Below, piece after piece: positions 5,880-24,059 of a DNA stretch of 64,000 nt (the stretch's first letter is position 1; the number at the start of each line of letters is the position of its first letter). Source of the stretch: Novosphingobium sp. (lineage in GTDB: Bacteria; Pseudomonadota; Alphaproteobacteria; Sphingomonadales; Sphingomonadaceae); assembly GCA_050248535.1 (NCBI GenBank), contig JBFWSE010000002.1:3209-67208 (forward strand), given 5' to 3'. The notes under the pieces are model-generated. The model made no database searches, was not told the origin of the DNA, and saw only the letters and a program-made list of their open reading frames with translations. The position numbers were made by a program, and so were the translations under genes.

Positions 5880-7028
5880 TCAGCCGTTTGAATGCGCTTG
5901 CAACAATTGCAACCGGTTCCTGGCGGCATCCTCCCAACGGAACTGCGTAGCGGTTTGCACTGCCCCGGCCGACAATGACTGCCGATAGTCCTCGTCGGTC
6001 GCCAATCGGCGAAGAGCGGCGACCAAGCCTTCCTGGTCATGCGGATCGACTATCAGACCGTTGACGTCTGTTGCGACCAGCCGCCCGGCGCCCATAGGGC
6101 CTGTCACGATCGGCAGTCCGCAACCCGCCGCTTCATAACATACCAGCGGCGCACCTTCCTCAAGTGTCGGAAAGAACAGACAGTCCGAATCTCTATAGTG
6201 CGTTGCAACATCGGCAGTGAAGGGCACATGACGAACCGTGTTATTGGCGGCATATTTCTGCATGATCGGCACCATTTCTTGCCGAATTCTGCCAACCATT
6301 CGCAACTCTCCCCGAATTCCGGCGCGTTCCCACGCTGCAAGTGCGAGATGAGCGCCCTTGCGCATCGAAATCTCTCCGACAAACAGCGCGACGAACTCGC
6401 CACGGTGCGACATGCCTTGTCGCGGTGAGAAACGGTCTGGATCCCAGCCGAAATGCGATTTTATCACCTTTTCGTCCGGCACGCCCCATTGGGCCAGTGA
6501 AGCATCAACCCCGGCGCTTGGCGAAACGATGTAATCGGCGAGGGCTAGCTCCTCGGATTCCGCCTCGCCCCACTCTCCGGTAATCTCATGAAGGCCGCTG
6601 GCACCAGTGCGATCGGCCTCGGCATCGAGGATGCGCATGGCCGTCCAGCAATGGGTATTGATCATTTCCCGCACGACTACGGCACCGGCCGACTTCAACT
6701 TGCGAGTGCTATCCGGACCAGCGCCTGGCCACGTCCAGACGATCGTGCCTGGCCCCAGTTTCCCGACACGATGCAGCAGCCTGGTTTCGATCCGGTCCTG
6801 GGCAAGCCGTTGAAACCGGCCGTTCCGGAAAGGCCGCGGCAGAATCATCGGAATACCGAGCACCGGGTTCAGCCCTTTGGGCAACGATGTCACAGCTGAG
6901 GGAGTGAATACGCTAACCGTGTTCCCGGCCTTTAGCATTTCCCATGCAATTGCTATAGGCGTATAGCTTGCGCCCACTCCGGTACAGACACAAGGAACAT
7001 AGGCAAGAATTGGCTGCGTACTGGTCAT
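5880..7028 (-). CDS. Glycosyltransferase family 4 (low GC)
   Basis: LFVGEISMRKG, FFPTLEEGAPLVCYEAAGCGLP (EX7E), VNGLIV. Confidence 0.9.
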   Translation of the reverse strand: MTSTQPILAYVPCVCTGVGASYTPIAIAWEMLKAGNTVSVFTPSAVTSLPKGLNPVLGIPMILPRPFRNGRFQRLAQDRIETRLLHRVGKLGPGTIVWTWPGAGPDSTRKLKSAGAVVVREMINTHCWTAMRILDAEADRTGASGLHEITGEWGEAESEELALADYIVSPSAGVDASLAQWGVPDEKVIKSHFGWDPDRFSPRQGMSHRGEFVALFVGEISMRKGAHLALAAWERAGIRGELRMVGRIRQEMVPIMQKYAANNTVRHVPFTADVATHYRDSDCLFFPTLEEGAPLVCYEAAGCGLPIVTGPMGAGRLVATDVNGLIVDPHDQEGLVAALRRLATDEDYRQSLSAGAVQTATQFRWEDAARNRLQLLQAHSNG

Positions 7029-7034
7029 TTATTC

Positions 7035-7895
7035 CTAAAACGCCTTTTGAATAACCGCGATTTTCACCTTGGGAAATATAAATCGGCTATCCACGTTGAA
7101 TATCTCCGAACGAACTCGTCTTATAATTCTTCCAACAATGTTTTTAATGGTTGGAGTTTCTGTGTCGATATAGGAAGCATAGTCGGGGACTATATTGTTG
7201 CGGGCGTTGTACAGCTGGCGATGACGAAAAAACCATTCTTCGTCGAACATGTGAAGCGACTTGATTGCGCGAGCCTGTTCGGCCCAATCGTGTTCCGGTA
7301 GCGATCCGGTCTCCGTAAATCGGCCTTTGCGCAGAAATCGGCTAAACAGAATATCCGTCCGCGGCACTCGCGGCAGGCTGAATTCATAAGTATCGGGCTG
7401 CCAGTGCATGTCCTCCACAATGTAGATTCCCCCCGGTTTCAGCAGGGGGAACAACTTGAGGAACGTCAGTTGCTGATGGAACGAAGCATGCGATCCATCA
7501 TCTAGAATGATGTCGAATTGCCGGTTCAGTGCCGCAACGCGATCGAGTTGCGCCGGGTCGCCGCAATCGGCCTGAACGAACTGGAACCATTCGCTGGTAA
7601 AAGCCGAGCAATCGGAGATGTCAACGCCAACGACGGATGCGTTCGGAAGGTACTCGCGCCACATTTTTATGGATGGCACATTGCCGATTTCCCGTTCCGC
7701 GGAGCCATCCGGCACCTCAGGTCCGCCAATGGCCAGCCCGATTTCGCAAATATCAGTGACACTGAGGCGCCGATGTGAAAAGAGAAGATCGTAAAGCAAG
7801 GTATAACCGTGCCCACCGTTATGCAGTGTGCCCTTGTCCGTTCCCGCCGCATTCGCAATTTCAGTCAAATCTTCCAAATTTACGCCTCTGATCAA
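7035..7895 (-). CDS. Class I SAM-dependent methyltransferase resembling sugar O-methyltransferases (low GC)
   Basis: AGTDKG...HGYTLLY, CEIGL, MWREYLPNASVVGVDI, DIILDDGSH, LKPGGIYIVED; this pattern resembles MycE/ElmMI/OleY-type enzymes. Confidence 0.75.
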   Translation of the reverse strand: MIRGVNLEDLTEIANAAGTDKGTLHNGGHGYTLLYDLLFSHRRLSVTDICEIGLAIGGPEVPDGSAEREIGNVPSIKMWREYLPNASVVGVDISDCSAFTSEWFQFVQADCGDPAQLDRVAALNRQFDIILDDGSHASFHQQLTFLKLFPLLKPGGIYIVEDMHWQPDTYEFSLPRVPRTDILFSRFLRKGRFTETGSLPEHDWAEQARAIKSLHMFDEEWFFRHRQLYNARNNIVPDYASYIDTETPTIKNIVGRIIRRVRSEIFNVDSRFIFPKVKIAVIQKAF

Positions 7896-7913: not shown

Positions 7914-8885
7914 TCAACACTTCGATACGATCGACCGGAAATAGTCGATCGTTTTCACAAGACCCAGATGCAATGGCACAGTCACGTCCCAGCCCAGTTG
8001 CGCCTTCGCCGTGGAAATGTCCGGCTGGCGCTGCCTGGGATCGTCAGGCGGCAGGGGCTGGAAGACAAGTTTCGACTGGCTGCCGGTCAATTCGATCACT
8101 TTCTGCGCCAGTTCGAGCATGGAAAACTCGCCCGGATTGCCCAGATTGACCGGACCCGTCACCTCTCTCGGCGTCGCCATCATCGCCATCATTCCCGCGA
8201 CAAGATCTTCGACATAGCAGAACGAGCGGGTCTGCGTGCCCTCACCATAGATCGTGATGTCCTCGCCGCGCAATGCCTGGACGATGAAGTTGGAGACCAC
8301 CCGGCCGTCGTTGGGATGCATGTGCGGGCCATAGGTGTTGAAGATGCGCACCACCTTGATCGCAAGGCCGTGCTGGCGGTGGTAATCGAAGAACAGCGTC
8401 TCGGCGCAGCGTTTGCCTTCGTCATAGCAGCTGCGCGGGCCGATCGGGTTCACATTGCCCCAGTATTCCTCAACCTGCGGGTGGATGTCCGGATCGCCAT
8501 AGACTTCGCTGGTCGATGCCTGGAGGATCGGAATGCGCAACCGCTTTGCCAGCCCCAGCATGTTGACCGCGCCCAATACGCTGGTCTTTACCGTCTGCAC
8601 CGGATCGAACTGGTAATGCACTGGCGAGGCCGGGCAGGCGAGATTGTAGATCTCGTCGACTTCGACATAGAGCGGAAAAGTCACATCGTGACGCATCAGT
8701 TCGAAATTGGGGTGAGCGAGCAAGGGCGCGATGTTGGCCCGGGTGCCCGTGAAGAAATTGTCGACGCACAACACATGGTGGCCCTGCTCGATCAGCCGGG
8801 CGCACAGGTGGGAGCCGATGAAGCCGGCCCCGCCAGTCACCAGCACGCGTTTCTGGATCGAATAGCGGGGGGAAGAGACTGTCAT
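7914..8885 (-). CDS. uxs: UDP-glucuronate decarboxylase (UDP-xylose synthase)
   Basis: Start moved to ATG 8885; [71 protein letters not shown]. Confidence 0.93.
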
Positions 8886-10087
8886 TGGTGTCCTTTCTCC
8901 GGCCCATCGCCCAGGGCCTCGATGAATTCGCGCATGCGCCCTTGCGCCGGTTCGGCATCCGGGTCCAGCAGCAATTCGACCGCATCCGCGAGTCTTTCGG
9001 TGTCGCCCATCCAGGCCCGGGCAAGCGATGCGCGGCCCATCGCCCGCCATTGCGCTTTATCCCCGGCCAGCGCCGCCATCGCCCGGGCAATGCCCTCGCT
9101 CGAGCCCCCTTCGACGATGTAACCGTTGACGCCCTCTCGCACCAGCGCATCGCCCGCACCTACAGCATCGGAAACAATGACTGGCAGGCCCAGGGCCAGC
9201 GCCTCGTTGACCACCAGGCCCCATTGCTCTGTCGTGCTTACCAGCACAAGCGCCAGTGCCCGCGAAAGCAGTCTGGATATGGCGCCAGCCGGCAGAAAGC
9301 CGGGGAATTCGACACTGGCCGACAGGCCAAGCGCATCGGCCTGCGCCCGCAGTTGGGGTTCCAGTTCGCCGGAACCGGCCAGCACCAGACGCCGGGCATC
9401 CGGGCCGGCCGCCCCCGCATAAGCGGCATAGCCTTCGAGCAGCCCGAAGAGATTCTTCTTTTCGACGAACCGGCCGACATAAACGAAAGGCCGCTGTGCG
9501 AAGTCCAGAGCATCGGGCGCCAACATGCCTTCTGCCTGCCGCCTTACGCGTTCGACACCGACACCGTCATAGCCAGGCAGGACCTTGCGGCGCCGGAAAC
9601 CCAGGAAGCGGAAATAGGCCATGTGCCGCTGCGCGCCGACAATCGCCGCGCTATAGGGCGTGAGCAACGCGGCCTTTAACCGCTCGAACACCGGCGAACG
9701 GGGGAAATCGTCGTATTTGGATTCGCTCATCACCACGACGCGCACACGGCAAAGCCAGAGCAGCCACGACAGCAGGATGATATCGCGCTCGTTGTAACCA
9801 ATGCCGACCAGAACCATGCGGCAATGGCGCAGCACGCGGAACTGGGCCACGAGACGCCGCCAGGCAGACACGGCCTCATAGGCCTGGCCGGGAAACAGAG
9901 TCAGCTTCGATGCGCCATTTACCTGCCCCGAAGGCTCCCAGGCATAGGTCTGCGAAGTGGAGCATACTTCCACGGCCAGCACGTCCGCCCTGTCCGCCAG
10001 CCGGCGCGCCACGGCTTCGCAGCGGTCGACATGATAGGCGGCGAACTGGGCGAATAACAGCGCTATTCGAGGCTTGCGATCGGACAC
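8882..10087 (-). CDS. Glycosyltransferase family 4
   Basis: Probable GTG start 10087 ([19 protein letters not shown]); [31 protein letters not shown]. Confidence 0.9.
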
Positions 10088-11537: not shown

Positions 11538-13352
11538 ATGACGCAAGGCGTTGCCGTATCCTGGCGAAAGCTCTACGCGATCATGCGCCCCTGCGGCCGT
11601 GGCAGGCTGGCGCTGGTCATGGCGCTGTTACTCGCGCAGGTGCTGTCGCAAACGCTTGCGGTGTTCTCGCTGCTGCCCTTCCTTTCTGCTGCCGCCGATG
11701 TCGCGGCGTTCCGGAATTCACGGGCCGGAAGTGTCTTTGTTGAGGCCATCGGCGGCGGAAGCGATCAGCGTCTGCTGATCTGGACCGGTTCGCTCTCGCT
11801 GGCCGTGCTGGTGGCGAGCAACGCAGTGGCGCTTGCGGCCGACTACGTCCGCAGCCGCTATGCCCAGCTTGTCGGCCACCGGTTGCGCATCAGGCTGCTC
11901 GGCGAACTGCTCGACAGACGGTATGAATATTTCCTTGGGATAAACAGCGCGGTGCTGCTCAAGAATCTTGTCGACGATGCGGCCATGGTCGGCGAGCAAC
12001 TGGTGCTGCCCGCACTCGACATTACGGCGCGCGGGCTGCTGGTGCTCATGCTGGCCGGAGCGGTTCTTTTGGTCGAACCCCTGGTGGCCGGCTTCGGCGC
12101 GGCGGCGATAGCGATCTACTATCTTCTGGTCATGTGGCCGATCCGGCGCCGGGCGCACCGGACATCGCAGCAAGTCCAGGATAACATCCGGTCGCTCTAT
12201 TACGAAGTGAACCAGACGCTCAACGCCGTGAAGCCGATACTTGCCGCGGGCCGCAGGGACTGGTTCGTCGCCCGGGCAGAACGCATATCGGCGCGGCATG
12301 CTGCCGTGACTCCTCGTATTCCGATGTACGCGATGATCCCGCGCAGCGGCCTGGAAATCATGGTATTCGGCGGCATCATTGCCTGGGTACTGGGTACGCT
12401 GATAGCTGGCGGCGACCTGGTGACAATGATGCCGCGAGTCGGGATGATCGCTGTTGTGGCCTACCGTGTCATGCCATCGATCCAGCTGATTTTCATGCAG
12501 CTGACTGCGATGACTTCCTCAAGCCGTGCCTTGCGGGAAATATCGGATTTGTCGCGCGATCAGCAATCGCTCTCGGCCCTGCCGGCCAGGCAGCCATTCG
12601 ACGACGACCGGCAAAGGCTGAGCTGGCAGCGGGAAATTCGTTTCGAAAATGTGGCCTTTGCCTATTCCGGGGCCAGGGTGCCGGCGCTTCGCGGCGTCTC
12701 TTTCGTCATTTCCAAGGGACAGCGGGTGGCATTTGTCGGCCCGACCGGCTCAGGCAAATCGACGCTCATCGACATTCTGCTCGGAATGCTGATTCCGACT
12801 TCAGGCCAAGTACTCATCGATGGCGAGCCGCTGACGCCCGAGCTGATTTTTGCATGGCGCCGGACAGTCGGTTATGTTCCGCAGGAATTGTTCCTGCTCG
12901 ACGGCTCGATTGCCGAGAACATCGCCTTCGGCGCCGGCTTCGACGAGATCGACCGCGAGCGCGTCATCGAAGTCGCCGAAACAGCGCAAGCGCGCAACTT
13001 TATCGAAAGCGGTCAGCCGCAGGGCTTCGAGACGATAGTCGGAGAACGCGGAGTCAGGCTCAGCGGCGGTCAGCGGCAGCGTCTGGCGCTTGCCCGGGCG
13101 CTATTCTGCAAACCCGATGTACTGATTCTCGACGAAGCCACTAGCGCACTCGACCCCGCCACGGAAAGCCGGGTGGTCGAGGCGATGAACCAGGCCAGCC
13201 AAAACCTCACTGTGGTTACTGTCACGCACCGGATCAACACGGTGAAAAACTACGACTGTATCCATTTCGTCGAGGGCGGGCGCATTGTCGCATCGGGCAC
13301 CTACGCCGAACTGGCCGCCGATCATGCCGGCTTTCGGGATCTGACACATTGA
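11538..13352 (+). CDS. ABC transporter, fused TMD+NBD (PglK/HetA-like glycan flippase)
   Basis: N-terminal TM domain; Walker A GPTGSGKST, Q-loop GYVPQE, signature LSGGQRQR, Walker B ILDEATSALD, H-loop VTHR; start probably ATG 11538. Confidence 0.92.
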   Translation: MTQGVAVSWRKLYAIMRPCGRGRLALVMALLLAQVLSQTLAVFSLLPFLSAAADVAAFRNSRAGSVFVEAIGGGSDQRLLIWTGSLSLAVLVASNAVALAADYVRSRYAQLVGHRLRIRLLGELLDRRYEYFLGINSAVLLKNLVDDAAMVGEQLVLPALDITARGLLVLMLAGAVLLVEPLVAGFGAAAIAIYYLLVMWPIRRRAHRTSQQVQDNIRSLYYEVNQTLNAVKPILAAGRRDWFVARAERISARHAAVTPRIPMYAMIPRSGLEIMVFGGIIAWVLGTLIAGGDLVTMMPRVGMIAVVAYRVMPSIQLIFMQLTAMTSSSRALREISDLSRDQQSLSALPARQPFDDDRQRLSWQREIRFENVAFAYSGARVPALRGVSFVISKGQRVAFVGPTGSGKSTLIDILLGMLIPTSGQVLIDGEPLTPELIFAWRRTVGYVPQELFLLDGSIAENIAFGAGFDEIDRERVIEVAETAQARNFIESGQPQGFETIVGERGVRLSGGQRQRLALARALFCKPDVLILDEATSALDPATESRVVEAMNQASQNLTVVTVTHRINTVKNYDCIHFVEGGRIVASGTYAELAADHAGFRDLTH

Positions 13353-14347
13353 GCGCCATGCGGATTTCCACAATCATTCCCGCTTACAACCGGGCCGACC
13401 TGATCGGCGAGACTCTGCGCACCGTGCTGTCGCAGAGCCTGCCGCCGCACGAAGTGATTGTGGTCGACGATGGCTCGAGCGATGGCACGCCCGACGCCGT
13501 CGCTGCTTTCGGCAAGGATGTGACGCTGATCCGCCAGGCGAATGCCGGGGCGGGTCCGGCCCGCAACGCGGGCTTTGCCCGATCGAGCGGCGATGTTATC
13601 CACTTCATGGACAGCGACGATCTGTGCTCGCTGAATTCCTACGAAGCGGCGATGCGGCGTTTCGAGGCCGGGGCGGATATGGTCTATGGGCCTTGGCTCA
13701 AGACCCGATTCAATGGCACGCGGCTCGATCCCGAGCCCTTCGTGCTGCAACAGGGGCCCATTGCCTCCACGCGGCCGAACGATGTGCTTGCCCTGATGGT
13801 CGATTGGGTGACGGTATTCCAGCCCTGCCTGTTTCGCCGGGAACTGATCGAACGGGCCGGACCATACCGGGCGGACCTCAAGCCCTCGGAGGATACCGAG
13901 CTACTCTATCGCATTATGGCCGCGGCGCGAGCGCCGGCGCACGTGGCAGAGGCATTGGTGCTCTACCGGGTGCATCCGGAAAACCAGGTTTCCGAACAAA
14001 ACCTGGGCCGCCGCCTCATCGACCGGGCCAATCTGTGGTCCGTGCTCGAACAGCATGCCAAGGCACGCGACGATCTCGATGCCACGTTCTGGCGCCGGTT
14101 CCGGCGCAGGAAATACGAAGTGGCGGTCGAAGTGAGGGAATACGATGCGGCCCGGGCGGAAGCGCTGGAAAGCGATGTCGGCGTGGCCGACCGCATGCTC
14201 CACCCCTTGCGCCAGTTCGCACGGCGTGTCCGGATGCGGCTGCAAGTCATGGCGACCGGCAATCCCTATCCCCGAACGCTGTCGGCTGCGCCGATCTCAC
14301 CCGGACAGCGCGAGCAAGTCCGCCTGCTCGGTTATGAGCTGCCCTAA
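13349..14347 (+). CDS. Glycosyltransferase family 2
   Basis: IIPAYNR, VIVVDDGSSD, NAGAGPARNAG, HFMDSDD; 4-nt overlap with ABC gene stop. Confidence 0.93.
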   Translation: MSAMRISTIIPAYNRADLIGETLRTVLSQSLPPHEVIVVDDGSSDGTPDAVAAFGKDVTLIRQANAGAGPARNAGFARSSGDVIHFMDSDDLCSLNSYEAAMRRFEAGADMVYGPWLKTRFNGTRLDPEPFVLQQGPIASTRPNDVLALMVDWVTVFQPCLFRRELIERAGPYRADLKPSEDTELLYRIMAAARAPAHVAEALVLYRVHPENQVSEQNLGRRLIDRANLWSVLEQHAKARDDLDATFWRRFRRRKYEVAVEVREYDAARAEALESDVGVADRMLHPLRQFARRVRMRLQVMATGNPYPRTLSAAPISPGQREQVRLLGYELP

Positions 14348-16095: not shown

Positions 16096-17321
16096 AGTTC
16101 CCGGCCCCAGAGCTTGGCGAGAAAGGCCTCGGGCGAATTCGCCTGTTGCGCCGCCTTGCGCCGCTCGCGGGCGAGGGCGCGGAAGTGCGCGTAATTTTCC
16201 GCCATATCGCGCATGGCCTGGGCCAGCGCGGCTGCATCGCCATCGGCAATGGCGATTCCCGCGCCCGACATTTCCGCGAAATCGGAAGTCCAGGTATCCT
16301 GCGTATAGATCATCGCTATGCCCGCTGTCGCCGCCTCCACCGCCACGCCCGAAATCCGCGCGAAGTAGCTTTCGCGGCGATAGGGCAAAAGCATGCAATC
16401 GGTTTCGGCAACCGCCCGGTCATAGCCGGCGCTGTCGAGCTGCCCGGTCAGGAAAGTCACGCGAGGATCGGCCAGCAAGTGCGGATCGGGATGGTAGGTG
16501 CTGCCGTCGGCATTGAGGATCGGCTGGTTCCACTGCACCACGAATTGCACCGGACGGGCAGGCGGGCCGGCCAGCAACAGGCGGATCGCCTCCTGCAGCA
16601 AGTCGATGCCTTTCTCGAACCGCGCCGGACCCAGACAGGAAAAGACCAGTGGCGCATCCAACGGCTTGGCTTGGTCCTCCAGCGCCGGGAACGGCGCAAC
16701 GCGCGGGCTGGGGAAGACCTTGGGCGCGATCCCGCAGAGCAGTTCGTATTCGCGGGCGAGGCGCGCGCTGTCCGTGGCGAAAGCCGCACGCCCTTCCCGC
16801 AGCGCAACGGCAAACGAGCGCAGCGCCCATGCGAATACCATGGCCGAACGCTTGAAAACAGGCGTGCTGCTGCCCGGCGCATAGGCCCCGGCATTGTTGC
16901 GGAACAAGAGCACCATGCGGCCGATCCGGCGGCGCTGCCAGAACAGCAGCAGACGCCAGCCCCATATGTGATGGATCACCACGGTGGGCGCGAACAAGCA
17001 ATCGAAGGGGCCATGCTGGCGCACGAAACGGTTCATGGTGCGAAACACCAGCCAGTTGTGCCGGGCTATGCCAAGGTAGCGCCGCCAGGCTTGCGGGTGG
17101 GCATAGACGCCGTCCCAATTGGTGCGCGCGAACAGCGGGCGGGCGTCGATTTCGGCGGCGATCTCCGGATCGATGCGGCAATGCGCGCCCACCGTCACTT
17201 CCACGCCCTGCCCAGCGTTCAACTCGGCGACCGATTTCACATATTCGTACCAGTGACCGATCCGGTCCTTCAGGGCCTCCTCGACGACTAGGAGCCGCTT
17301 GCCTGCCAGCCGGTCAGCCAT
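16092..17321 (-). CDS. GT-B fold glycosyltransferase, atypical
   Basis: GHWYEY N-terminal loop, CLGPARFEKG, MLLPYRRESYFARISGVAVEAATAG; start probably 17321 (8-nt overlap with reductase). Confidence 0.75.
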   Translation of the reverse strand: MADRLAGKRLLVVEEALKDRIGHWYEYVKSVAELNAGQGVEVTVGAHCRIDPEIAAEIDARPLFARTNWDGVYAHPQAWRRYLGIARHNWLVFRTMNRFVRQHGPFDCLFAPTVVIHHIWGWRLLLFWQRRRIGRMVLLFRNNAGAYAPGSSTPVFKRSAMVFAWALRSFAVALREGRAAFATDSARLAREYELLCGIAPKVFPSPRVAPFPALEDQAKPLDAPLVFSCLGPARFEKGIDLLQEAIRLLLAGPPARPVQFVVQWNQPILNADGSTYHPDPHLLADPRVTFLTGQLDSAGYDRAVAETDCMLLPYRRESYFARISGVAVEAATAGIAMIYTQDTWTSDFAEMSGAGIAIADGDAAALAQAMRDMAENYAHFRALARERRKAAQQANSPEAFLAKLWGREL

Positions 17322-18249
17322 CGAGGCTGCGGGCATACCAGTCGACCGTGCGCGCCAGCCCCTGCTCGATCGACGTTTGTGCCGTCCAGCCCAGCACCTC
17401 GCGCACTTTCGTCACATCGAGACGTCGGGTCTTCACGCCTGTGAATTTGTTGGGATTATAGGCGATTTCGCCGTCAAAGCCGGCAGCCTGCTTGATCGTC
17501 CCGGCAATGCGGGCGATCGAATAGGCCTCGCCCGTGCCGAGGTTGAGCATATCGGCATCGGAATGGAGGGCCGCTTCGATGATCCCGTCGGCGGCGTCTT
17601 CGACGAAAAGGAATTCGCGCTCCTGCGTCCCGTCGCCCCAGACTTCGACACTCTCCGCATGGCCCCGCGCGCCGCGCACGAATTTGCCGATCAGCGCGCC
17701 GACTACGTGCGAATCCTCGGCAAAGCTGTCGCCCGGCCCATAGACCGTGGGCAGCACCACGCTGGTCGAGCGCAGGCCGCATTCCTGCCGGTAGGCCCTC
17801 TGGCCGATCAGCATGGCCTTCTTGGTCAGCGCATAGGCGAAGAGATAGTCCTCCGGCTCGCTGCCCCAGACATCGCTTTCGGGATGCGGACGATGCAGCG
17901 AGGGATAGATGCAATAGGACAGGATCGAAGTCAGCTTGGCTTCGGGGAAATAGCGTTTCCAGCCTTCGAGCAGGTTGACGTTGATCTTGAAATTGACGTT
18001 GAACTGGGTTGCCGGGTGGCGCACCGGCCAGTCGCCCGCCTTGTAGAGCGCCGCGAGGTGGATGATGTGGTCACACTGATAGGCCTGCCGCTGGGCCTCC
18101 ATCCAGGCGAAGAAGGCCGCCTCGTCGGCAATGTCGACCACCGATGTGCCAACCGGCACCAGATTGGCATCAGGAAACCGTGCTGCGAGGCGGCGCATCA
18201 GCGTCTTGCCGACAAAGCCGGTGGCGCCGGTGACGATGACGTTCTTCAT
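17314..18249 (-). CDS. GDP-L-fucose-synthase-like NAD(P)-dependent epimerase/reductase (second Fcl paralogue)
   Basis: Start moved to ATG 18249; VTGATGFVG, IIHLAA, LSYCIYP, YALTKK (YxxxK), VYGPGD, SHVVGALI, VWGDG...REFLFVEDAA. Confidence 0.88.
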   Translation of the reverse strand: MKNVIVTGATGFVGKTLMRRLAARFPDANLVPVGTSVVDIADEAAFFAWMEAQRQAYQCDHIIHLAALYKAGDWPVRHPATQFNVNFKINVNLLEGWKRYFPEAKLTSILSYCIYPSLHRPHPESDVWGSEPEDYLFAYALTKKAMLIGQRAYRQECGLRSTSVVLPTVYGPGDSFAEDSHVVGALIGKFVRGARGHAESVEVWGDGTQEREFLFVEDAADGIIEAALHSDADMLNLGTGEAYSIARIAGTIKQAAGFDGEIAYNPNKFTGVKTRRLDVTKVREVLGWTAQTSIEQGLARTVDWYARSLDG

Positions 18250-19496
18250 ACCCGCTCGAACGCCCCGCCCGGCCCGACAATTCGCACTTCGGGCACTGTG
18301 ACGATGAACCGCCCGCCTTGTTGCAAGTAGGCGTCGAACTTGCCGACCAGGAAGTCGATGAAGTTCCACGACAGCACGAGGTAATAGTCGGGCACTTCGG
18401 TCACGGTCTTCTCGTCGACCACCGGGATATGGGTTCCAGGCGTAACGCGGCCGAACTTGAACTCGTTGACCTCGGTGACTTTCTCGATCAGCTCGGGGCC
18501 TATCCTGGCATAGTTCAGCACCGTGCTGCCCTTGACCGGGGCGCCCAGGGCAAAGACGCGTTTGCCTTCGCCCCTGAGCCGTTCAAGCAGAGTTTTCACC
18601 GTCGCCATGTTGTGGGCAATGCGCCCGGCGAAGAGATCATAGGTCTCTCGCCGGTAAAGCCCGGCCGCATCTTCGGCGGCAATCGCCTCGGCCACGGCGG
18701 GTGTAGTCGGCAGAGGATTTTCCTCGCGGCAGACATAGAGAATGAACGAACCGCCGTGGATCGGTGAAAACTCGACATCCTGGATGCGCAACCCGTGCTC
18801 GGCGAACAGCCGGGTCAGCGGCCCGAGCGAATGGACGCAGCTATGCTCATGATAGAAGTGATCGAACTCGTTGAACTCGATCAGATCCTTGAGATTGACC
18901 CCCTGCACCACGAAGAATGAATTGGGGCCCATCACTTCGGTCAGCCCGCGCACGAAATCGTGCAGGTCGGGCACGTGATAGAACACGGCAGTGGCCGTGA
19001 TCACTTCCGGGCAGACGCCAAGCTGGCGCAAGCTCTTGCCCGTCTCGTGGTTCCAGAACTGCTGGAACACTGTCACGCCTTTGCCACGCGCCAGCCGCCC
19101 CGGCCGCTCCGACGGATCGACGCCCAGCACCCGCATGCCGTTGTCCGCGAAGGCCTGGAGCAGAGTGCCGTCGTTGCAGCCGACATCGATGACCAGATCG
19201 TTCGGTTTCAGCCCCAGCTTTTCGACCACATGTGGCGCCAGAGCCTGGAAATGGCGCACCACCGGCTCGCTGGTGCCGGTTACATAGGGATGGTCGCGGA
19301 AGAGCAGTTCCTGCGAGGGGAATTCGGCGATCTGCACTTCCCAACAATCCTCGCAGACCATCATGGCGAGCGGGAAAGTGACTTCGCCGGCCAGTTCGTC
19401 GGCATAGAGGAAGTGGTTGCCATTGGGCTGATCGCCGCAATCGATGAACTCATGCAACCGCACCCCGCCGCAAACCATGCAGTTTTGTCGTTTCAT
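18246..19496 (-). CDS. NDP-hexose C3-methyltransferase (zinc-binding N-domain + SAM domain + C-terminal domain)
   Basis: Start ATG 19496; CMVC...CEDC Zn ligands, VIDVGCNDG, FDHFYHEH, IHGGS, GAPVKGSTVLNY, PDYYLVLSWNF. Confidence 0.9.
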   Translation of the reverse strand: MKRQNCMVCGGVRLHEFIDCGDQPNGNHFLYADELAGEVTFPLAMMVCEDCWEVQIAEFPSQELLFRDHPYVTGTSEPVVRHFQALAPHVVEKLGLKPNDLVIDVGCNDGTLLQAFADNGMRVLGVDPSERPGRLARGKGVTVFQQFWNHETGKSLRQLGVCPEVITATAVFYHVPDLHDFVRGLTEVMGPNSFFVVQGVNLKDLIEFNEFDHFYHEHSCVHSLGPLTRLFAEHGLRIQDVEFSPIHGGSFILYVCREENPLPTTPAVAEAIAAEDAAGLYRRETYDLFAGRIAHNMATVKTLLERLRGEGKRVFALGAPVKGSTVLNYARIGPELIEKVTEVNEFKFGRVTPGTHIPVVDEKTVTEVPDYYLVLSWNFIDFLVGKFDAYLQQGGRFIVTVPEVRIVGPGGAFERV

Positions 19497-19575
19497 CGGC
19501 TGGCGGGACTTTCCTGGCTGAACAGACTGGCGCCGGGGCACCTAGCGGAAGCGCGGGGCAGGGGGCAAGCGGCGA

Positions 19576-20799
19576 TCATGCTGCGCTCGCGAGCGCGACG
19601 AGCCGCGCCTCGAAGCGGCGCAGGATGGCATCGCGCTGCCAGTGGCTGCGGGCCCGGGCGGCGGCGCCTGCGCCAAGACTTTCAGCCAGCGCCGGATCGT
19701 CGAGCAATCGCTCGATGGCCTTTGCGAATTTTACAGCATCGCCCGGCTCGGTGACGAGGCCGCAACCTTCCACTTCGGCGGCAAGCCCGGTGCCTTCCGA
19801 GGCCGTCGTCACGACCGGTCTGCCCGACAGCAGCATGTTGGTGAGCTTGGACGGCAGCACCAGATCGGCCGCGCCCGGAATCTGCGGCAGCAGATGGACC
19901 GAAGCCATGGCCAGCAGCCCGCCCATCCGTCCGGCCGGCTGCAAGCCATGCAACTGAACATTCGTCTGCCCGGCGCATTGCTCCTCCAGCCGCATCCGGC
20001 TGGGACCCTCGCCGCAAATGACAAAAACCAGATCCTCGCGAGCGGTGAGCAGCCGCGCGGTCTCGACCACCAGTTCGATACCCTGCTTGTTGGCGATATT
20101 GCCCGAATAGAGCGCGACATGGCGCGCGCCGATGTTCCATTCCTCGCGGTAACGCGCGGCCTCGGTCATATCGGGTTTGAACGAATCGTTTGCCCAGTTG
20201 CGAAGTTCGTAACTGCGCTCCGCGGCAATGCCCTTGGCCTGAAGCCGCGCCACCATCTGCGGGCTGATCGCCGATACGCAGCGCCCCAGCCCAAGCAGCC
20301 GCCGCTCCAGCCATTGCGCCAGCCGCGCGGTGAGGCCGGGCTTGAGCAACCCGGTGACGAAAGCGGCTTCCGCTTCGAAATCCTGCACGTGCACCCAGAG
20401 TTTCGCCCCGGCCAGTTTCGCCGCCAGCCAGGCCACGGGCACGCTCATGAGCGAAGGGGCCACCGTGAACACTGCGTCGGGCCGCTGCCGTCGCGCGGCG
20501 GCGCAGGCCGGGCCCAGCGCCGACAGCGAGAAGGAGAAAAGATGCGCCAGCCGCTTCAATCCACTTGGCTGCGACGGGATGTAGTGCCGGCAACGCCGCA
20601 CCCCGACGCCGTTTTCCACTCTGCGCGCGGACGGGCCGGAAACGCCATCGCGCCGCCGCCATTCGGGATAGTAGGGTTCACCCGCGACCACTTCGACGTT
20701 ATGGCCACAGCCTGCCAGCCATTCGCACAGTCCGGCCGTATACGGGCCGATGCCGACTTGCTCGGGCGCATAGTTGAGACCGACGACGAGCAGCTTCAC
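19576..20799 (-). CDS. wcaI: WcaI-family glycosyltransferase (GT4)
   Basis: GTG start 20799; GLNYAPEQVGIGPY, GEPYYPEW, VHVQDFE, LYSGNIANKQG, DLVLPSKL. Confidence 0.9.
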   Translation of the reverse strand: MKLLVVGLNYAPEQVGIGPYTAGLCEWLAGCGHNVEVVAGEPYYPEWRRRDGVSGPSARRVENGVGVRRCRHYIPSQPSGLKRLAHLFSFSLSALGPACAAARRQRPDAVFTVAPSLMSVPVAWLAAKLAGAKLWVHVQDFEAEAAFVTGLLKPGLTARLAQWLERRLLGLGRCVSAISPQMVARLQAKGIAAERSYELRNWANDSFKPDMTEAARYREEWNIGARHVALYSGNIANKQGIELVVETARLLTAREDLVFVICGEGPSRMRLEEQCAGQTNVQLHGLQPAGRMGGLLAMASVHLLPQIPGAADLVLPSKLTNMLLSGRPVVTTASEGTGLAAEVEGCGLVTEPGDAVKFAKAIERLLDDPALAESLGAGAAARARSHWQRDAILRRFEARLVALASAA

Positions 20800-20815
20800 G
20801 CCCCCAACACCCTGT

Positions 20816-21760
20816 TCATTCGCGCACTTCACCGGCGAGGAAGCGGCGATAGACATCGGCGATGCCATCTTCCAGCTTGATACGCGGGCGCCAGCCCATG
20901 GCCATGATCCGCCCGCTGTCCATCACCTTGCGCGGCGTGCCGTCGGGCCGGGAGCGATCGCATTCGATCCGCCCCGCGAACCCGACAATGCCCGCCACCA
21001 TTTCCGCCAGCGCGAGAATGGTCAGCTCGCGGCCCGAGCCGACGTTGATGTGGCTCTCCTCGCTGTAGTTCCGGAGCAGAAAGACGCAGGCCTCGGCCAG
21101 ATCGTCGACATGCAGCAATTCGCGCAAGGGCGCCCCCGTGCCCCAGATGGTCATAGCCTTTGCCCCGGCAAGCTTCGCCTCGTGCGCCTTGCGGATCAGC
21201 GCGGGCAGGACATGCGAGCTTTCGAGGTCGAAATTGTCGCCCGGGCCATAGAGATTGGTCGGCATGGCGCTGATGAAATCGCAGCCATACTGGCGGCGAT
21301 AGGCCTGGCACAGCTTGATCCCGGCGATCTTGGCAATGGCATACCACTGGTTGGTCGCTTCGAGCGGCCCGGTGAGCAGGGCCTCCTCGGTCATCGGCTG
21401 CACGGCATCGCGCGGGTAGATGCACGAAGAGCCAAGGAACAGTAGCTTCTCGACGCCGCAAGCCCGCGCCGCCTCGATCAGGTTGGCCTCGATCATCAGG
21501 TTATCGTAGATGAATTCGCCCGGCCGGCTGTCGTTGGCGCGAATGCCGCCGACCCGCGCGGCGGCGATCACGACACCTTGCGGGCGATTTTCCTCGATCC
21601 AGCCACGCACTGCCGCCTGTTCGCGCAAGTCGACGCCACGCGGTGCGGTCAGCACCTGGCAGTCTTCGCTGGCCAGCCGCCGCACCAGCGCCGAGCCGAC
21701 CATTCCCCGATGCCCCGCCACATAGATGCGCTTGCCGTGCAGCAGCCAGGGCGCGGCCAT
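20816..21760 (-). CDS. fcl: GDP-L-fucose synthase
   Basis: Start ATG 21760; VAGHRGMVGS, AARVGGI, LGSSCIYP, YAIAKIAG, MPTNLYGP, SHVLPAL. Confidence 0.95.
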   Translation of the reverse strand: MAAPWLLHGKRIYVAGHRGMVGSALVRRLASEDCQVLTAPRGVDLREQAAVRGWIEENRPQGVVIAAARVGGIRANDSRPGEFIYDNLMIEANLIEAARACGVEKLLFLGSSCIYPRDAVQPMTEEALLTGPLEATNQWYAIAKIAGIKLCQAYRRQYGCDFISAMPTNLYGPGDNFDLESSHVLPALIRKAHEAKLAGAKAMTIWGTGAPLRELLHVDDLAEACVFLLRNYSEESHINVGSGRELTILALAEMVAGIVGFAGRIECDRSRPDGTPRKVMDSGRIMAMGWRPRIKLEDGIADVYRRFLAGEVRE

Positions 21761-21762
21761 GG

Positions 21763-22827
21763 TCAGAACTGGCCGCCGACTGCGCCGCCGAGCAGCGCGG
21801 CCAGATCCGCCTCGACCATCTCGCGCGCCAGTTCGCGCGCGCTGGTTTCGTGCTTCCAGCCCAGCTGGCGGTGTGCCTTGCTCGCATCGCCGATCAGGAG
21901 ATCGACTTCGGCCGGGCGGAAATAGCGCGGGTCGATTTCGATCAGGCTCTTCCCGGTTTTCCGGCAAAGGCCCTGCTCGTCCGCCCCCTCGCCGCGCCAT
22001 TCGATCTCGATCCCGGCATCGGCAAAGGCCCACTCGGCAAACGTGCGCACCGATGTCGTCTCACCGGTCGCCAGCACATAGTCGTCCGGCTCGTCCTGTT
22101 GCAGCATCAGCCACATGCCGCGGACATATTCCCTGGCATGACCCCAGTCGCGCTTGGCATCGAGATTGCCGATGTAGAGCTTGTCCTGCCGCCCCTGCGC
22201 AATCGCGACGGCGGCACGGCTGATCTTGCGCGTGACGAAAGTTTCGCCCCGGATCGGGCTTTCGTGATTGAACAGGATGCCGTTCGAGGCATGCAGCCCA
22301 TAGGCCTCGCGGTAATTGACCGTGATCCAGTAGCCATAGAGCTTGGCGACGCCATAGGGCGAGCGCGGATAGAACGGCGTCTGCTCGTTCTGCGGCACCT
22401 GCTGGACCAGGCCATACATTTCCGAGGTCGAGGCCTGGTAGAAACGCGTCTTCTTCTCCAGCCCCAGAATGCGGATTGCTTCCAGCAGCCGCAGCGTGCC
22501 GAGGGCATCGGCATTGGCGGTATATTCGGGCGTCTCGAAACTCACCTGAACATGGCTTTGCGCCGCGAGATTGTAGATCTCGTCAGGCTGCACTTCCTGA
22601 ACCACGCGAATCAGGTTTGTGGCATCGGTAAGGTCGCCGAAATGCAGGCGGAAGCGCTGGTGTTCGACATGCGGGTCTTCGTAGATGTCCTCGATCCGCC
22701 CGGTGTTGAACGAGGATGAGCGCCGTTTGAGCCCATGGACTTCATAGCCCTGTTCCAGCAGCAGCCGCGCCAGATAGGCGCCGTCCTGCCCGGTAACCCC
22801 GGTGATAAGCGCAACCTTGCCCGCCAT
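21763..22827 (-). CDS. gmd: GDP-mannose 4,6-dehydratase
   Basis: [56 protein letters not shown]. Confidence 0.97.
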
Positions 22828-22851: not shown

Positions 22852-23418
22852 TCAATTGCGCGTGGGGACGGAGAACGAACCGGTGACCCGGCCGCCACTG
22901 CCGCCCGATGTGCCGCCCAATGCCGGCGAAGAACCGGCGCCGCGGCCATCGACGCTGGAAATGCCGCTGTTGAGATCGATCGTCAGCCGGCCGCCATTGA
23001 GCGTGTCGCCGCCACGTCGCAGCGCCACGCCGCCAGCCAGGACAATCACCCGCCGGTTGAAATCGTAGACCGCGACATCGCCGCGCGCGGTTTCGCCACC
23101 GCGCGTTACCAGCACGCCGCCGGTTGCATCCATCCGCTGGATCTTGAGCCCGCCATCGTCGGTATAGGCCACGGTGGTGCGCCCGGCGTGCAGGCGCAAG
23201 TCGCCCTGGCTGATATCGACATTGCCCGAAAGAACCACGCGCTTCTGCTTGTCCTGCAGTTCGATCCGGTCGGCGGCATAATTGACCGGCGCGCCGGTGT
23301 TGTGCGCGCCGATGCCCTGGGCCGTGGCGTGCTGCATGGCCACCAGCGCCGCGCCGCCCGCGAAGCCCGCGAAGCCCGCGCGCCAGATCAGCGACTTCAA
23401 AGTGCGTTTCGCCATCAT
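22852..23418 (-). CDS. lptA: LptA/OstA-family periplasmic beta-jellyroll protein
   Basis: Signal peptide; ADRIEL, VVLSGNVDISQG, ATGGVLV, AVYD, LAGGVAL, GGRVTGSF. Confidence 0.88.
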   Translation of the reverse strand: MMAKRTLKSLIWRAGFAGFAGGAALVAMQHATAQGIGAHNTGAPVNYAADRIELQDKQKRVVLSGNVDISQGDLRLHAGRTTVAYTDDGGLKIQRMDATGGVLVTRGGETARGDVAVYDFNRRVIVLAGGVALRRGGDTLNGGRLTIDLNSGISSVDGRGAGSSPALGGTSGGSGGRVTGSFSVPTRN

Positions 23419-24059
23419 GGGATCCTCAGCTTGCCTTGCGTCATCCGCAGCCTGGCGCGTCCGACCAGCGCCACCGTGCGTTCATCGAGATCGGCGACTA
23501 TCTCTTCGGCGGAAAAAGTGCCAGCCGGAACCGCGCCCTCGATGCCGCCCGTTCCCGTCACCCGCTGGTCCCGGAGATCGACAGTCACCCCCCGGGTGGT
23601 CAGGCGATAGCCATCGGCGGCGGAAAATTCCACCGGCCCATCGATTTTCACAGTCTGCAAGTCGAAATTGTAAAGCCCGCCCGGCGCGGACAGCAAGGCG
23701 GGACCATCGCTCATTTCAATTGCGGCGCTCAGGCTTTCCATGCGTACCACCGGATCGCTCGCCTGCGCCTGCACCGCCGAGGCGGCGCTGAGCGCGAAAG
23801 GCCGGCCGTGGTTGTCTTCACCGCGGTATTTGGCATCGGCGACGCTGATGCGATCCTCGGCAATGGCGACCTTGTTGCGATCCAGCAGGAAGCTGATTTC
23901 GCCGCGCGGCGAGAGCGGGGCGAGAATCATCACCGCCGCCAGCATGCCGATTCCCGCGGGCAGCAGTGTCGACAGCACGCGAACCATCCGGTCGTGCTTG
24001 CCGCCCGGCAGGGCAAGCGAGACGCGCTTGGAGCGGACGATGTCGGCGGCTTGAGTCAT
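23415..24059 (-). CDS. lptC: LptC-family protein
   Basis: Single N-terminal TM; YRGEDNHGRPFALSA; between rnd and lptA; 4-nt overlap with lptA start. Confidence 0.85.
   Translation of the reverse strand: MTQAADIVRSKRVSLALPGGKHDRMVRVLSTLLPAGIGMLAAVMILAPLSPRGEISFLLDRNKVAIAEDRISVADAKYRGEDNHGRPFALSAASAVQAQASDPVVRMESLSAAIEMSDGPALLSAPGGLYNFDLQTVKIDGPVEFSAADGYRLTTRGVTVDLRDQRVTGTGGIEGAVPAGTFSAEEIVADLDERTVALVGRARLRMTQGKLRIP

Follow-up and report, generated by a model that had tools for sequence, protein, structure and literature searches.

Sugars with a methyl-branched carbon are rare in polysaccharides, and their biosynthesis has been proven only for sugars of actinomycete antibiotics linked to deoxythymidine diphosphate (dTDP). 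In the dTDP-L-mycarose route, a C3-methyltransferase (TylC3/EryBIII) acts first, followed by a 5-epimerase (TylK) and a 4-ketoreductase (TylC2). For virenose (6-deoxy-3-C-methyl-gulose) in the lipopolysaccharide (LPS) of Coxiella burnetii, a route linked to guanosine diphosphate (GDP) was proposed in silico in 2012, with CBU_0689 as Gmd, CBU_0691 as a TylCIII-like protein and CBU_0688 as an Fcl-like protein (PMC3539893); this medically relevant pathway is still hypothetical. The present work concerns a locus in which the same proposed logic recurs for a surface glycan: a Gmd, a TylCIII-like C-methyltransferase (gene cmt) and an Fcl-like epimerase/reductase (Fcl2, gene fcl2) are all encoded in one operon. 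It lies in a stretch of 64,000 nucleotides from Novosphingobium sp. (contig JBFWSE010000002.1), hereafter called the window, to which all positions refer unless a locus or contig is given.

We propose that this operon draws on one intermediate for two GDP-activated 6-deoxy sugars, namely fucose and a methyl-branched 6-deoxyhexose for a surface polymer; the probability that we attach to this reading is roughly 0.6. An earlier note on this DNA had suggested such a splitting of the Gmd product, and the suggestion draws support from the family of the methyltransferase, from the Fcl-derived nature of its partner, from the presence of gmd in every carrier and from the polysaccharide cluster in which the operon is set. 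The remark in the same note that nothing of the kind has been described in sphingomonads agrees with the literature searched. Because an in silico scheme has been published for Coxiella, the concept is not categorically new. What is new is that an Fcl-derived clade is dedicated to this role, that the methyltransferases form a lineage apart and that a conserved multi-gene cassette is spread through environmental bacteria; the methyltransferase lineage of the window is the one without discussion in the literature searched.

The differences from the Coxiella scheme lie in the enzymes themselves. When the sequences of CBU_0691 and CBU_0688 were taken from the supplementary alignment of PMC3539893, cmt turned out to be 28% identical to CBU_0691 and Fcl2 27% identical to CBU_0688, whereas the canonical Fcl of the window shares 43% identity with CBU_0688. 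In the methyltransferase tree, CBU_0691 groups with TylC3 and with other sphingomonad methyltransferases, in a well-supported clade separate from that of cmt. In addition, a dedicated and divergent Fcl-like clade coexists here with canonical Fcl. Given the 27-28% identity and the different tree clade, orthology of cmt and Fcl2 to the Coxiella virenose genes was rejected, so that the pair would represent a second lineage that follows this logic.

The cmt-fcl2 pair and its proposed pathway

The cmt gene (19541-18246, minus strand) encodes a putative nucleoside diphosphate (NDP)-4-keto-sugar C-methyltransferase of the TcaB9/MtmC family. Its three-domain layout, an N-terminal zinc ribbon (Methyltransf_13), a class I S-adenosylmethionine domain (Methyltransf_23) and a C-terminal Methyltransf_14 domain, is complete, with matches to PF08421 (56.8 bits, residues 21-81), PF13489 (65.9 bits, residues 99-254) and PF08484 (154.2 bits, residues 260-417), all above the gathering scores. 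The four-cysteine zinc site is formed by CMVC (21-24) and CEDC (63-66), which fall on the paired CxxC motifs of MtmC and TcaB9; these are followed by the motifs YHEH (230-233), GAPVKG (333-338) and WNF (392-394). The best end-to-end matches in the PDB are MtmC (4rv9, E 2e-87, 36% identity) and TcaB9 (3ndi, E 8e-69, 34% identity), with KijD1 also among the matches. The catalytic Y-x-E-H motif is aligned in all three proteins (FDHFYHEHS in cmt, FDQIYDEHF in TcaB9, FDTIYHEHL in MtmC), and the upstream histidine of FYHVPD in cmt falls on the 'CHIP' histidine of TcaB9 (LCHIPY); the active-site residues of TcaB9 are Tyr222, Glu224, His225 and His181. With the fold, domain order, zinc site and Y-x-E-H motif of TcaB9, MtmC and KijD1, cmt is, as far as domains and alignment can tell, a genuine enzyme of this family, and it is predicted to methylate C-3 of GDP-4-keto-6-deoxymannose.

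The assignment to a C3 type represented by TcaB9, NovU and EryBIII, as it had been made in the earlier note, needs to be qualified. The family membership stands, on the Pfam and PDB matches, but NovU does not belong in such a list, being, like CloU and CouU, a C5-methyltransferase. The family thus holds both C-3 and C-5 enzymes, and membership alone does not fix C-3. In a maximum-likelihood tree that included MtmC, TcaB9, TylC3 and CBU_0691, the Fcl2-partnered methyltransferases, including cmt, formed one clade with support 100/100, apart from the dTDP enzymes MtmC, TcaB9 and TylC3.

These facts bear on an alternative in which the product is still GDP-linked, while the methylated carbon or the order of the steps is another. 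Either cmt would methylate C-5 in the manner of NovU, with Fcl2 epimerising C-3 and reducing C-4 to give a 5-C-methyl (gem-dimethyl) sugar, or Fcl2 would first epimerise C-3 and C-5, and cmt would act on the L-configured 4-keto intermediate. Such schemes would suit a family with both regiochemistries, and Fcl2 retains the full two-residue epimerase machinery; moreover, the Fcl2-partnered methyltransferases stand on a long separate branch, so that the regiochemistry of MtmC and TcaB9 is not transferable to them. We nevertheless judge this alternative unlikely. The nearest solved relatives of cmt are all C-3 enzymes, and the C-methyl 6-deoxyhexoses known from bacterial glycans are all 3-C-methyl (virenose, 3-C-methyl-rhamnose, 3-C-methyl-mannose). 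As for the epimerase residues, C-5 epimerisation alone needs both the cysteine and the histidine, and their retention is therefore no argument for epimerisation at C-3.

The second gene of the pair, fcl2 (18249-17314, minus strand), encodes a divergent Fcl-like short-chain dehydrogenase/reductase (SDR). Its ATG (18249-18247) overlaps the TGA of cmt (18248-18246) in an ATGA sequence (...cgg gtATGAag...), which bears out the translational coupling claimed previously, and all the motifs that had been cited for the two proteins are found at the expected places (in Fcl2, SYC at 111-113, YALTK at 139-143 and SHV at 180-182). Fcl2 is closest to the GDP-fucose synthases (E. coli GDP-fucose synthase, GFS, 1bsv, E 8e-31). 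With GDP-L-fucose synthase (Fcl/GMER/WcaG; E. coli 1bsv, human FX) it shares the SDR fold, the Ser/Tyr/Lys triad, the Cys109/His179 pair and the WG-G...REF motif. It differs in sharing no more than about 30% identity with the canonical Fcl of the window, in having a sequence signature of its own and in being always paired with a C-methyltransferase. Its score with the equivalog model NF047922 is 159 bits against a cut-off of 500, which indicates a related clade and not a GDP-fucose synthase equivalog; for comparison, no other nucleotide-sugar model gave Fcl2 more than 73 bits.

In an alignment of 118 proteins of the Fcl2 clade, each with at least 64% identity, Ser111, Cys113, Tyr139, Lys143 and His181, which align with Ser107, Cys109, Tyr136, Lys140 and His179 of E. 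coli GFS, are each at least 98% conserved, and the clade signature HLAaLYKAGdWPVxHPaTQF stands where Fcl has AAARVGG. Conserved catalytic residues together with a signature of the clade point to a specialised epimerase/reductase and not to a decaying paralogue. Fcl2 is therefore best regarded as a candidate C-5 epimerase/C-4 reductase, predicted to act on the methylated GDP-4-keto sugar. To our knowledge, all the characterised relatives of the clade use GDP-sugars.

In a large protein collection, more than 120 clusters are related to Fcl2 with an identity of 64% or higher; they stem from sphingomonads, cyanobacteria, Chloroflexi and many metagenomes. They bear only generic or automatic names, many of them 'GDP-L-fucose synthase' or a generic epimerase, a widespread annotation that work on the cassette would correct. 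In one Chloroflexi metagenome-assembled genome (MAG; L033:1755-3338), the Fcl2 homologue (65% identity) is fused to a C-terminal domain of glycosyltransferase family 2 (GT2), giving a protein of 527 amino acids, and a methyltransferase gene overlaps its start.

Taken at face value, the automatic names would make Fcl2 a redundant or alternative synthase of GDP-fucose (or of a GDP-6-deoxy-hexose), with cmt acting on the finished glycan or on a non-sugar, and no branched nucleotide sugar would be made. That the catalytic residues are the same as those of Fcl would fit. However, the operon already has a canonical fcl, the score of Fcl2 is a long way under the Fcl equivalog cut-off and its sequence shows the signature of a separate clade, and cmt has the complete architecture and the catalytic motif of the NDP-4-keto-sugar C-methyltransferases. 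In addition, the adjacency of the two genes, often with translational coupling, is invariant although the sequences have diverged by some 36-44% and the loci belong to at least three phyla. We therefore consider this explanation very improbable.

The remaining enzymes needed for a divided pathway lie upstream on the same strand. The gmd gene (22827-21763), for GDP-mannose 4,6-dehydratase, passes the TIGR01472 equivalog cut-off (607.8 bits against 415; PF16363, 525 bits) and is the sole gmd of this genome; on these scores its product is assigned the supply of GDP-4-keto-6-deoxy-D-mannose. Next comes fcl (21760-20816), for canonical GDP-L-fucose synthase (3,5-epimerase/4-reductase), which scores 499.4 bits with NF047922 (cut-off 500) and carries the SSC, YAIAK and SHV motifs. 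It is followed by a gene for a WcaI-family GT4 glycosyltransferase (20868-19576, 430 amino acids; NF007640, 450.8 bits against a cut-off of 276), a probable fucosyltransferase. The NF007640 profile begins at residue 25, and the true start is probably near 20799. The presence of gmd, fcl, the C-methyltransferase and the Fcl-like reductase, in this order, was correctly given in the earlier note and is documented on the minus strand by matches to TIGR01472, NF047922 and the Pfam families, but the methyltransferase does not directly follow fcl, since the unmentioned WcaI-family gene lies between them. Orthologues of this transferase, with 57-80% identity, are found beside the cassette in L001-L008 (L numbers denote the loci compared below).

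In the pathway that we infer, Gmd would use GDP-mannose to make GDP-4-keto-6-deoxy-D-mannose, part of which would be turned by canonical Fcl into GDP-L-fucose, probably for use by the WcaI-type transferase. The remainder would be taken by cmt, which would deprotonate C-3 beside the 4-keto group and transfer to it the methyl group of S-adenosylmethionine. Fcl2 would then invert C-5 by means of its Cys/His pair and reduce C-4 with NADPH by means of its Ser/Tyr/Lys triad; C-3 being quaternary after methylation, C-5 is the only centre that Fcl2 could epimerise. The product would be a GDP-6-deoxy-3-C-methyl-L-hexose, of L-galacto or L-gulo configuration depending on whether C-3 is inverted in the methylation. 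Methylation by TylC3 and TcaB9 inverts C-3, and hydride delivery by Fcl gives the galacto configuration; if both hold here, the product would be GDP-6-deoxy-3-C-methyl-L-galactose, whereas retention at C-3 would lead to the L-gulo isomer, 'L-virenose'. The branched sugar would finally be installed by two glycosyltransferases encoded downstream (gtA and gtB), and an acetyltransferase probably O-acetylates the product glycan.

The order of C-3 methylation, C-5 epimerisation and C-4 reduction is that of the dTDP-L-mycarose system. Here, however, epimerase and reductase appear merged in one Fcl-like SDR, and the nucleotide is probably GDP. The setting is also different, namely a Gram-negative or cyanobacterial polysaccharide locus, whereas enzymes of the mycarose and TcaB9 type belong to antibiotic clusters of actinomycetes and have dTDP-2,6-dideoxy or 3-amino sugars as their substrates. 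A more specific claim, which we hold tentatively and at somewhat less than even odds, is that cmt and Fcl2 form an unrecognised GDP-specific lineage, independent of Coxiella, which makes the undescribed GDP-6-deoxy-3-C-methyl-L-galactose or -L-gulose and is widespread in the glycans of cyanobacteria, sphingomonads and Chloroflexi. If true, sugars of the virenose type, for which Coxiella is at present described as the only source, would be common among environmental bacteria.

Spread of the cassette and the probable nucleotide of its sugar

A scan of one genome per species with cmt yielded 11 loci, eight from Novosphingobium and Erythrobacteraceae (74-93% identity) and three from cyanobacteria (56-61%). 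A second sample consisted of six distant Fcl2 homologues, chosen only for their long contigs. In L001-L008 and L011, the latter from the cyanobacterium Sphaerospermopsis, the cmt gene is directly 5' of fcl2, and a Methyltransf_13/14 gene is directly 5' of the Fcl2 homologue in 6/6 distant loci. The pair is thus adjacent in 15 of 15 related loci, frequently with a start/stop overlap, in at least three phyla (Pseudomonadota, Cyanobacteriota and Chloroflexota; five of the 15 loci are metagenome contigs without a taxon). Such an arrangement is far beyond chance.

The unit extends past Fcl2, where the earlier note had ended it, through gtA, gtB and the acetyltransferase gene, all three of which are co-conserved with the pair; by tblastn, the module cmt-fcl2-(FkbM)-gtA-gtB-acetyltransferase is kept from sphingomonads to cyanobacteria. 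A module conserved in at least three phyla identifies the unit as a shared glycan cassette, whose Novosphingobium version is embedded between the GDP-fucose genes and transferases. The product of gtA (17336-16092, minus strand) is a GT-B glycosyltransferase with weak matches to PF13692 and PF00534. Its orthologues, 42-80% identical, occur downstream of Fcl2 in L001-L008, L011, L022, L024, L025, L034 and L035, directly after it in the Novosphingobium and Erythrobacteraceae loci and in L034, and elsewhere with an FkbM methyltransferase gene or other insertions in between. As the most tightly co-conserved transferase, gtA is the best candidate for installing the branched sugar. For gtB (about 16000-14944, minus strand; GT4 of GT-B type, PF00534 and PF13439; the frame is open to 16398 and the start is uncertain), orthologues with 31-72% identity were found in L002, L003, L005, L006, L011, L022, L025, L034 and L035. 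The hexapeptide-repeat O-acetyltransferase (14925-14344, minus strand; WcaF/maltose-acetyltransferase type, with PF00132 and NF007797/NF007499 matches) is 64-87% identical in L002, L005, L006, L011, L022, L025, L034 and L035.

A GT2 glycosyltransferase gene on the plus strand (13349-14347; PF00535, 109 bits) is more loosely tied to the module. A homologue lies directly 5' of cmt in L005, L024 and L035 (36-64% identity by tblastn), and L011, L022 and L034 also have a GT2 gene by Pfam in that place, with no tblastn match to the GT2 of the window.

An FkbM-type methyltransferase (PF05050, about 375 amino acids) follows Fcl2, directly or one gene further on, in L022, L024, L025, L035 and L011, and no FkbM gene is found in the module of the window. 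Its presence in most of the non-sphingomonad copies suggests that the branched sugar is there also O-methylated. Within the Sphingomonadaceae, a search for close cmt orthologues in 201 genomes found only paralogues with 30-36% identity, so that the cassette is sporadic in the family.

Which nucleotide carries the sugar was approached through a census of 4,6-dehydratases in the 12 genomes with the cmt clade. All 12 have gmd (in the 11 others, nine genes score above the cut-off and two at about 350 bits), against a family baseline of 89/201 (44%). Profile searches found no RmlB in the genome of the window, which is 92% complete (best score 150 bits against 365), nor in G207 and G208, and neither RmlA nor a dehydratase of the PglF/CapD type, specific for uridine diphosphate (UDP)-N-acetylglucosamine, was found in the genome of the window; the other 11 cassette genomes have no cytidine diphosphate (CDP)-glucose 4,6-dehydratase above the cut-off. 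According to this census, Gmd is the only source of a 4-keto-6-deoxy sugar common to all carriers. In the window, L001 and L002, moreover, the pair shares its operon with gmd and fcl, and in L004 and L007 fcl is directly 5' of cmt. GDP thus appears to be the best-supported nucleotide for the cmt-fcl2 sugar.

Several points weigh against this conclusion and against the proposed pathway as a whole. In the literature searched, which yielded only the Coxiella model and the O-antigen structures cited below, there is no characterised GDP-sugar C-methyltransferase and no report of a C-methyl sugar in a sphingomonad glycan, Novosphingobium included, or in a cyanobacterial one; the virenose pathway itself is still called uncharacterised in a 2026 preprint (bioRxiv 10.64898/2026.05.14.724635). 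Homology cannot separate C-3 from C-5 methylation, nor can sequence fix the nucleotide. The non-sphingomonad loci have no gmd at less than 10 kb from the pair, and in G203 and G205 gmd is on a different contig from the pair. Several cassette genomes are incomplete MAGs, and three of the genomes lacking a dehydratase are incomplete assemblies. RmlB is present in 9 of the 12 cassette genomes, and the genome of the window also has a CDP-glucose 4,6-dehydratase, together with RfbF. Finally, two methyltransferases from cyanobacterial MAGs (L009:8001-10140 and L010:1475-3626), 56-58% identical to cmt and nested in the Fcl2-partnered clade, are followed not by Fcl2 but by an RmlD-like reductase (TIGR01214, 162 bits, under the cut-off). 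This lineage of methyltransferases can thus exchange its partner, and another nucleotide may be acceptable to it. The RmlD-like partner is apparently a secondary swap.

The last three of these points are also what speaks for a dTDP- or CDP-linked substrate, processed by the same chemistry, in which case the proximity of gmd and fcl would be an incidental clustering of polysaccharide genes. It may be added that every methyltransferase of the family with established biochemistry uses dTDP-sugars (MtmC, TcaB9 and KijD1 being the PDB matches), that CDP-vinelose (6-deoxy-3-C-methyl-2-O-methyl-L-talose) arises by the same three-step logic on a CDP-sugar, and that many cassettes contain an FkbM methyltransferase. 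Against this stand the census, by which neither source is common to all carriers (no RmlA or RmlB here, no CDP-glucose dehydratase above the cut-off in the other 11), and the descent of Fcl2 from the GDP-fucose synthase lineage. The CDP locus of this genome, furthermore, is self-contained, with an RfbH, an SDR, a methyltransferase and a glycosyltransferase of its own. On balance, a dTDP or CDP linkage seems to us improbable, and the GDP-linked pathway is preferred.

Individual candidates for another source were also rejected. As a general explanation, a vinelose-like CDP route fails on two counts: the dehydratase is missing from the other 11 cassette genomes, and the CDP locus is equipped with downstream enzymes of its own. 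A dTDP route in this genome was discarded given the lack of RmlA and RmlB; the other SDR matches resemble UDP-glucuronate 4-epimerase-type, GalE-like and other epimerases and not dehydratases, as judged from inspection of their motifs only. The uxs-like SDR of the cluster, considered as a hidden 4,6-dehydratase, is a UDP-glucuronate decarboxylase (match to human UXS1), and a PglF/CapD-type enzyme as the 4-keto source was dismissed since the genome has none.

The CDP-sugar locus lies outside the window and is split over two contig ends (C70:17113-18517, L020; C4:56000-63107, L021). It contains RfbF, the CDP-glucose 4,6-dehydratase in two halves, the RfbH 3-dehydrase, an SDR and an FkbM methyltransferase, as well as a split transketolase-like thiamine pyrophosphate enzyme (N and C parts) and a PgfS/ArnC-like GT2. 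Its gene content suggests that the product is a 3,6-dideoxy sugar, which may be C-branched.

The cassette suggests that the surface glycans of cyanobacteria and sphingomonads contain a sugar so far unrecognised. It would make a harmless test system of simple genetics, since Novosphingobium flavum NBRC 111647 and N. bradum KCTC 42984 are carriers in culture and the homologues fill more than 100 clusters. Two questions could be addressed with it, namely whether C-methylation of the Gmd product is possible and in what way a quaternary C-3 is dealt with by an enzyme of the Fcl type.

Other C-methyl sugars and methyltransferases in proteobacteria

Three further Sphingomonadaceae loci, L027 (G099:C6), L028 (G120:C1) and L029 (G173:C25), encode a C-methyltransferase 30-31% identical to cmt that falls in the TylC3/CBU_0691 clade. 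In L028 and L029 this gene adjoins that for a short Gmd-like protein (283-289 bits with TIGR01472, under the cut-off), and each of the two has a true gmd at a distance of a few kb; in L027 it is the true gmd that adjoins the methyltransferase, the Gmd-like protein being encoded about 1.7 kb away on the other side. Judging from this gene content, the three loci may represent a route of the GDP-3-C-methyl-D-rhamnose type with a Gmd-derived reductase. With two methyltransferase clades in GDP-sugar contexts, C-methyltransferases appear to have been recruited there at least twice.

Among the surface polysaccharides of proteobacteria, there are some with C-3-methyl sugars. 3-C-methyl-D-rhamnose is attributed to Azorhizobium caulinodans, in its O-polysaccharide (Zdorovenko 2012, as cited in PMC7203242), Rha3CMe is found in Burkholderia andropogonis (PMC7203242), and 3-C-methyl-D-mannose is attributed to Helicobacter pylori (as cited in PMC9912281). 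These sugars are manno-configured and thus probably GDP-derived; as far as could be found, no biosynthetic genes have been published for them. Being of manno/rhamno configuration, and D in the case of Azorhizobium and H. pylori, they fit a reductase-only partner, such as the Gmd-like protein of L027-L029, better than the epimerising Fcl2.

The operon and its surroundings

Together, gmd, fcl, the wcaI-like transferase gene, cmt, fcl2, gtA, gtB and the acetyltransferase gene constitute an eight-gene minus-strand operon inside a 22-kb polysaccharide cluster. The real genes between 14.3 and 22.8 kb are all on the minus strand and have a high third-position GC, the G+C content of the window being 63-66%. 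The rest of the cluster (0.1-14 kb) encodes a Wzc-type kinase, a Wzy-like polymerase, several GT4 and one GT2 glycosyltransferases, a fused ABC exporter and the UDP-glucuronate decarboxylase. The latter is the SDR at 7914-9050 (human UXS1, E 8e-125), and its presence makes it probable that the polymer also contains xylose.

Directly 5' of gmd, on the same strand and separated from it by 24 nucleotides, are genes for LptA (PF03968) and an LptC-like protein (22852-24059), and the lptC-lptA-glycan-operon junction is shared with L001, L002 and L008. As sphingomonads are generally held to be without LPS, this linkage of Lpt genes to a glycan locus may be worth a look. The lowest G+C content of the window (0.549 against about 0.64 elsewhere) is found in the 6-8 kb stretch; a GT4 gene and a weak methyltransferase-like open reading frame (PF13847, 22.7 bits, under the cut-off) lie at 5880-7895.

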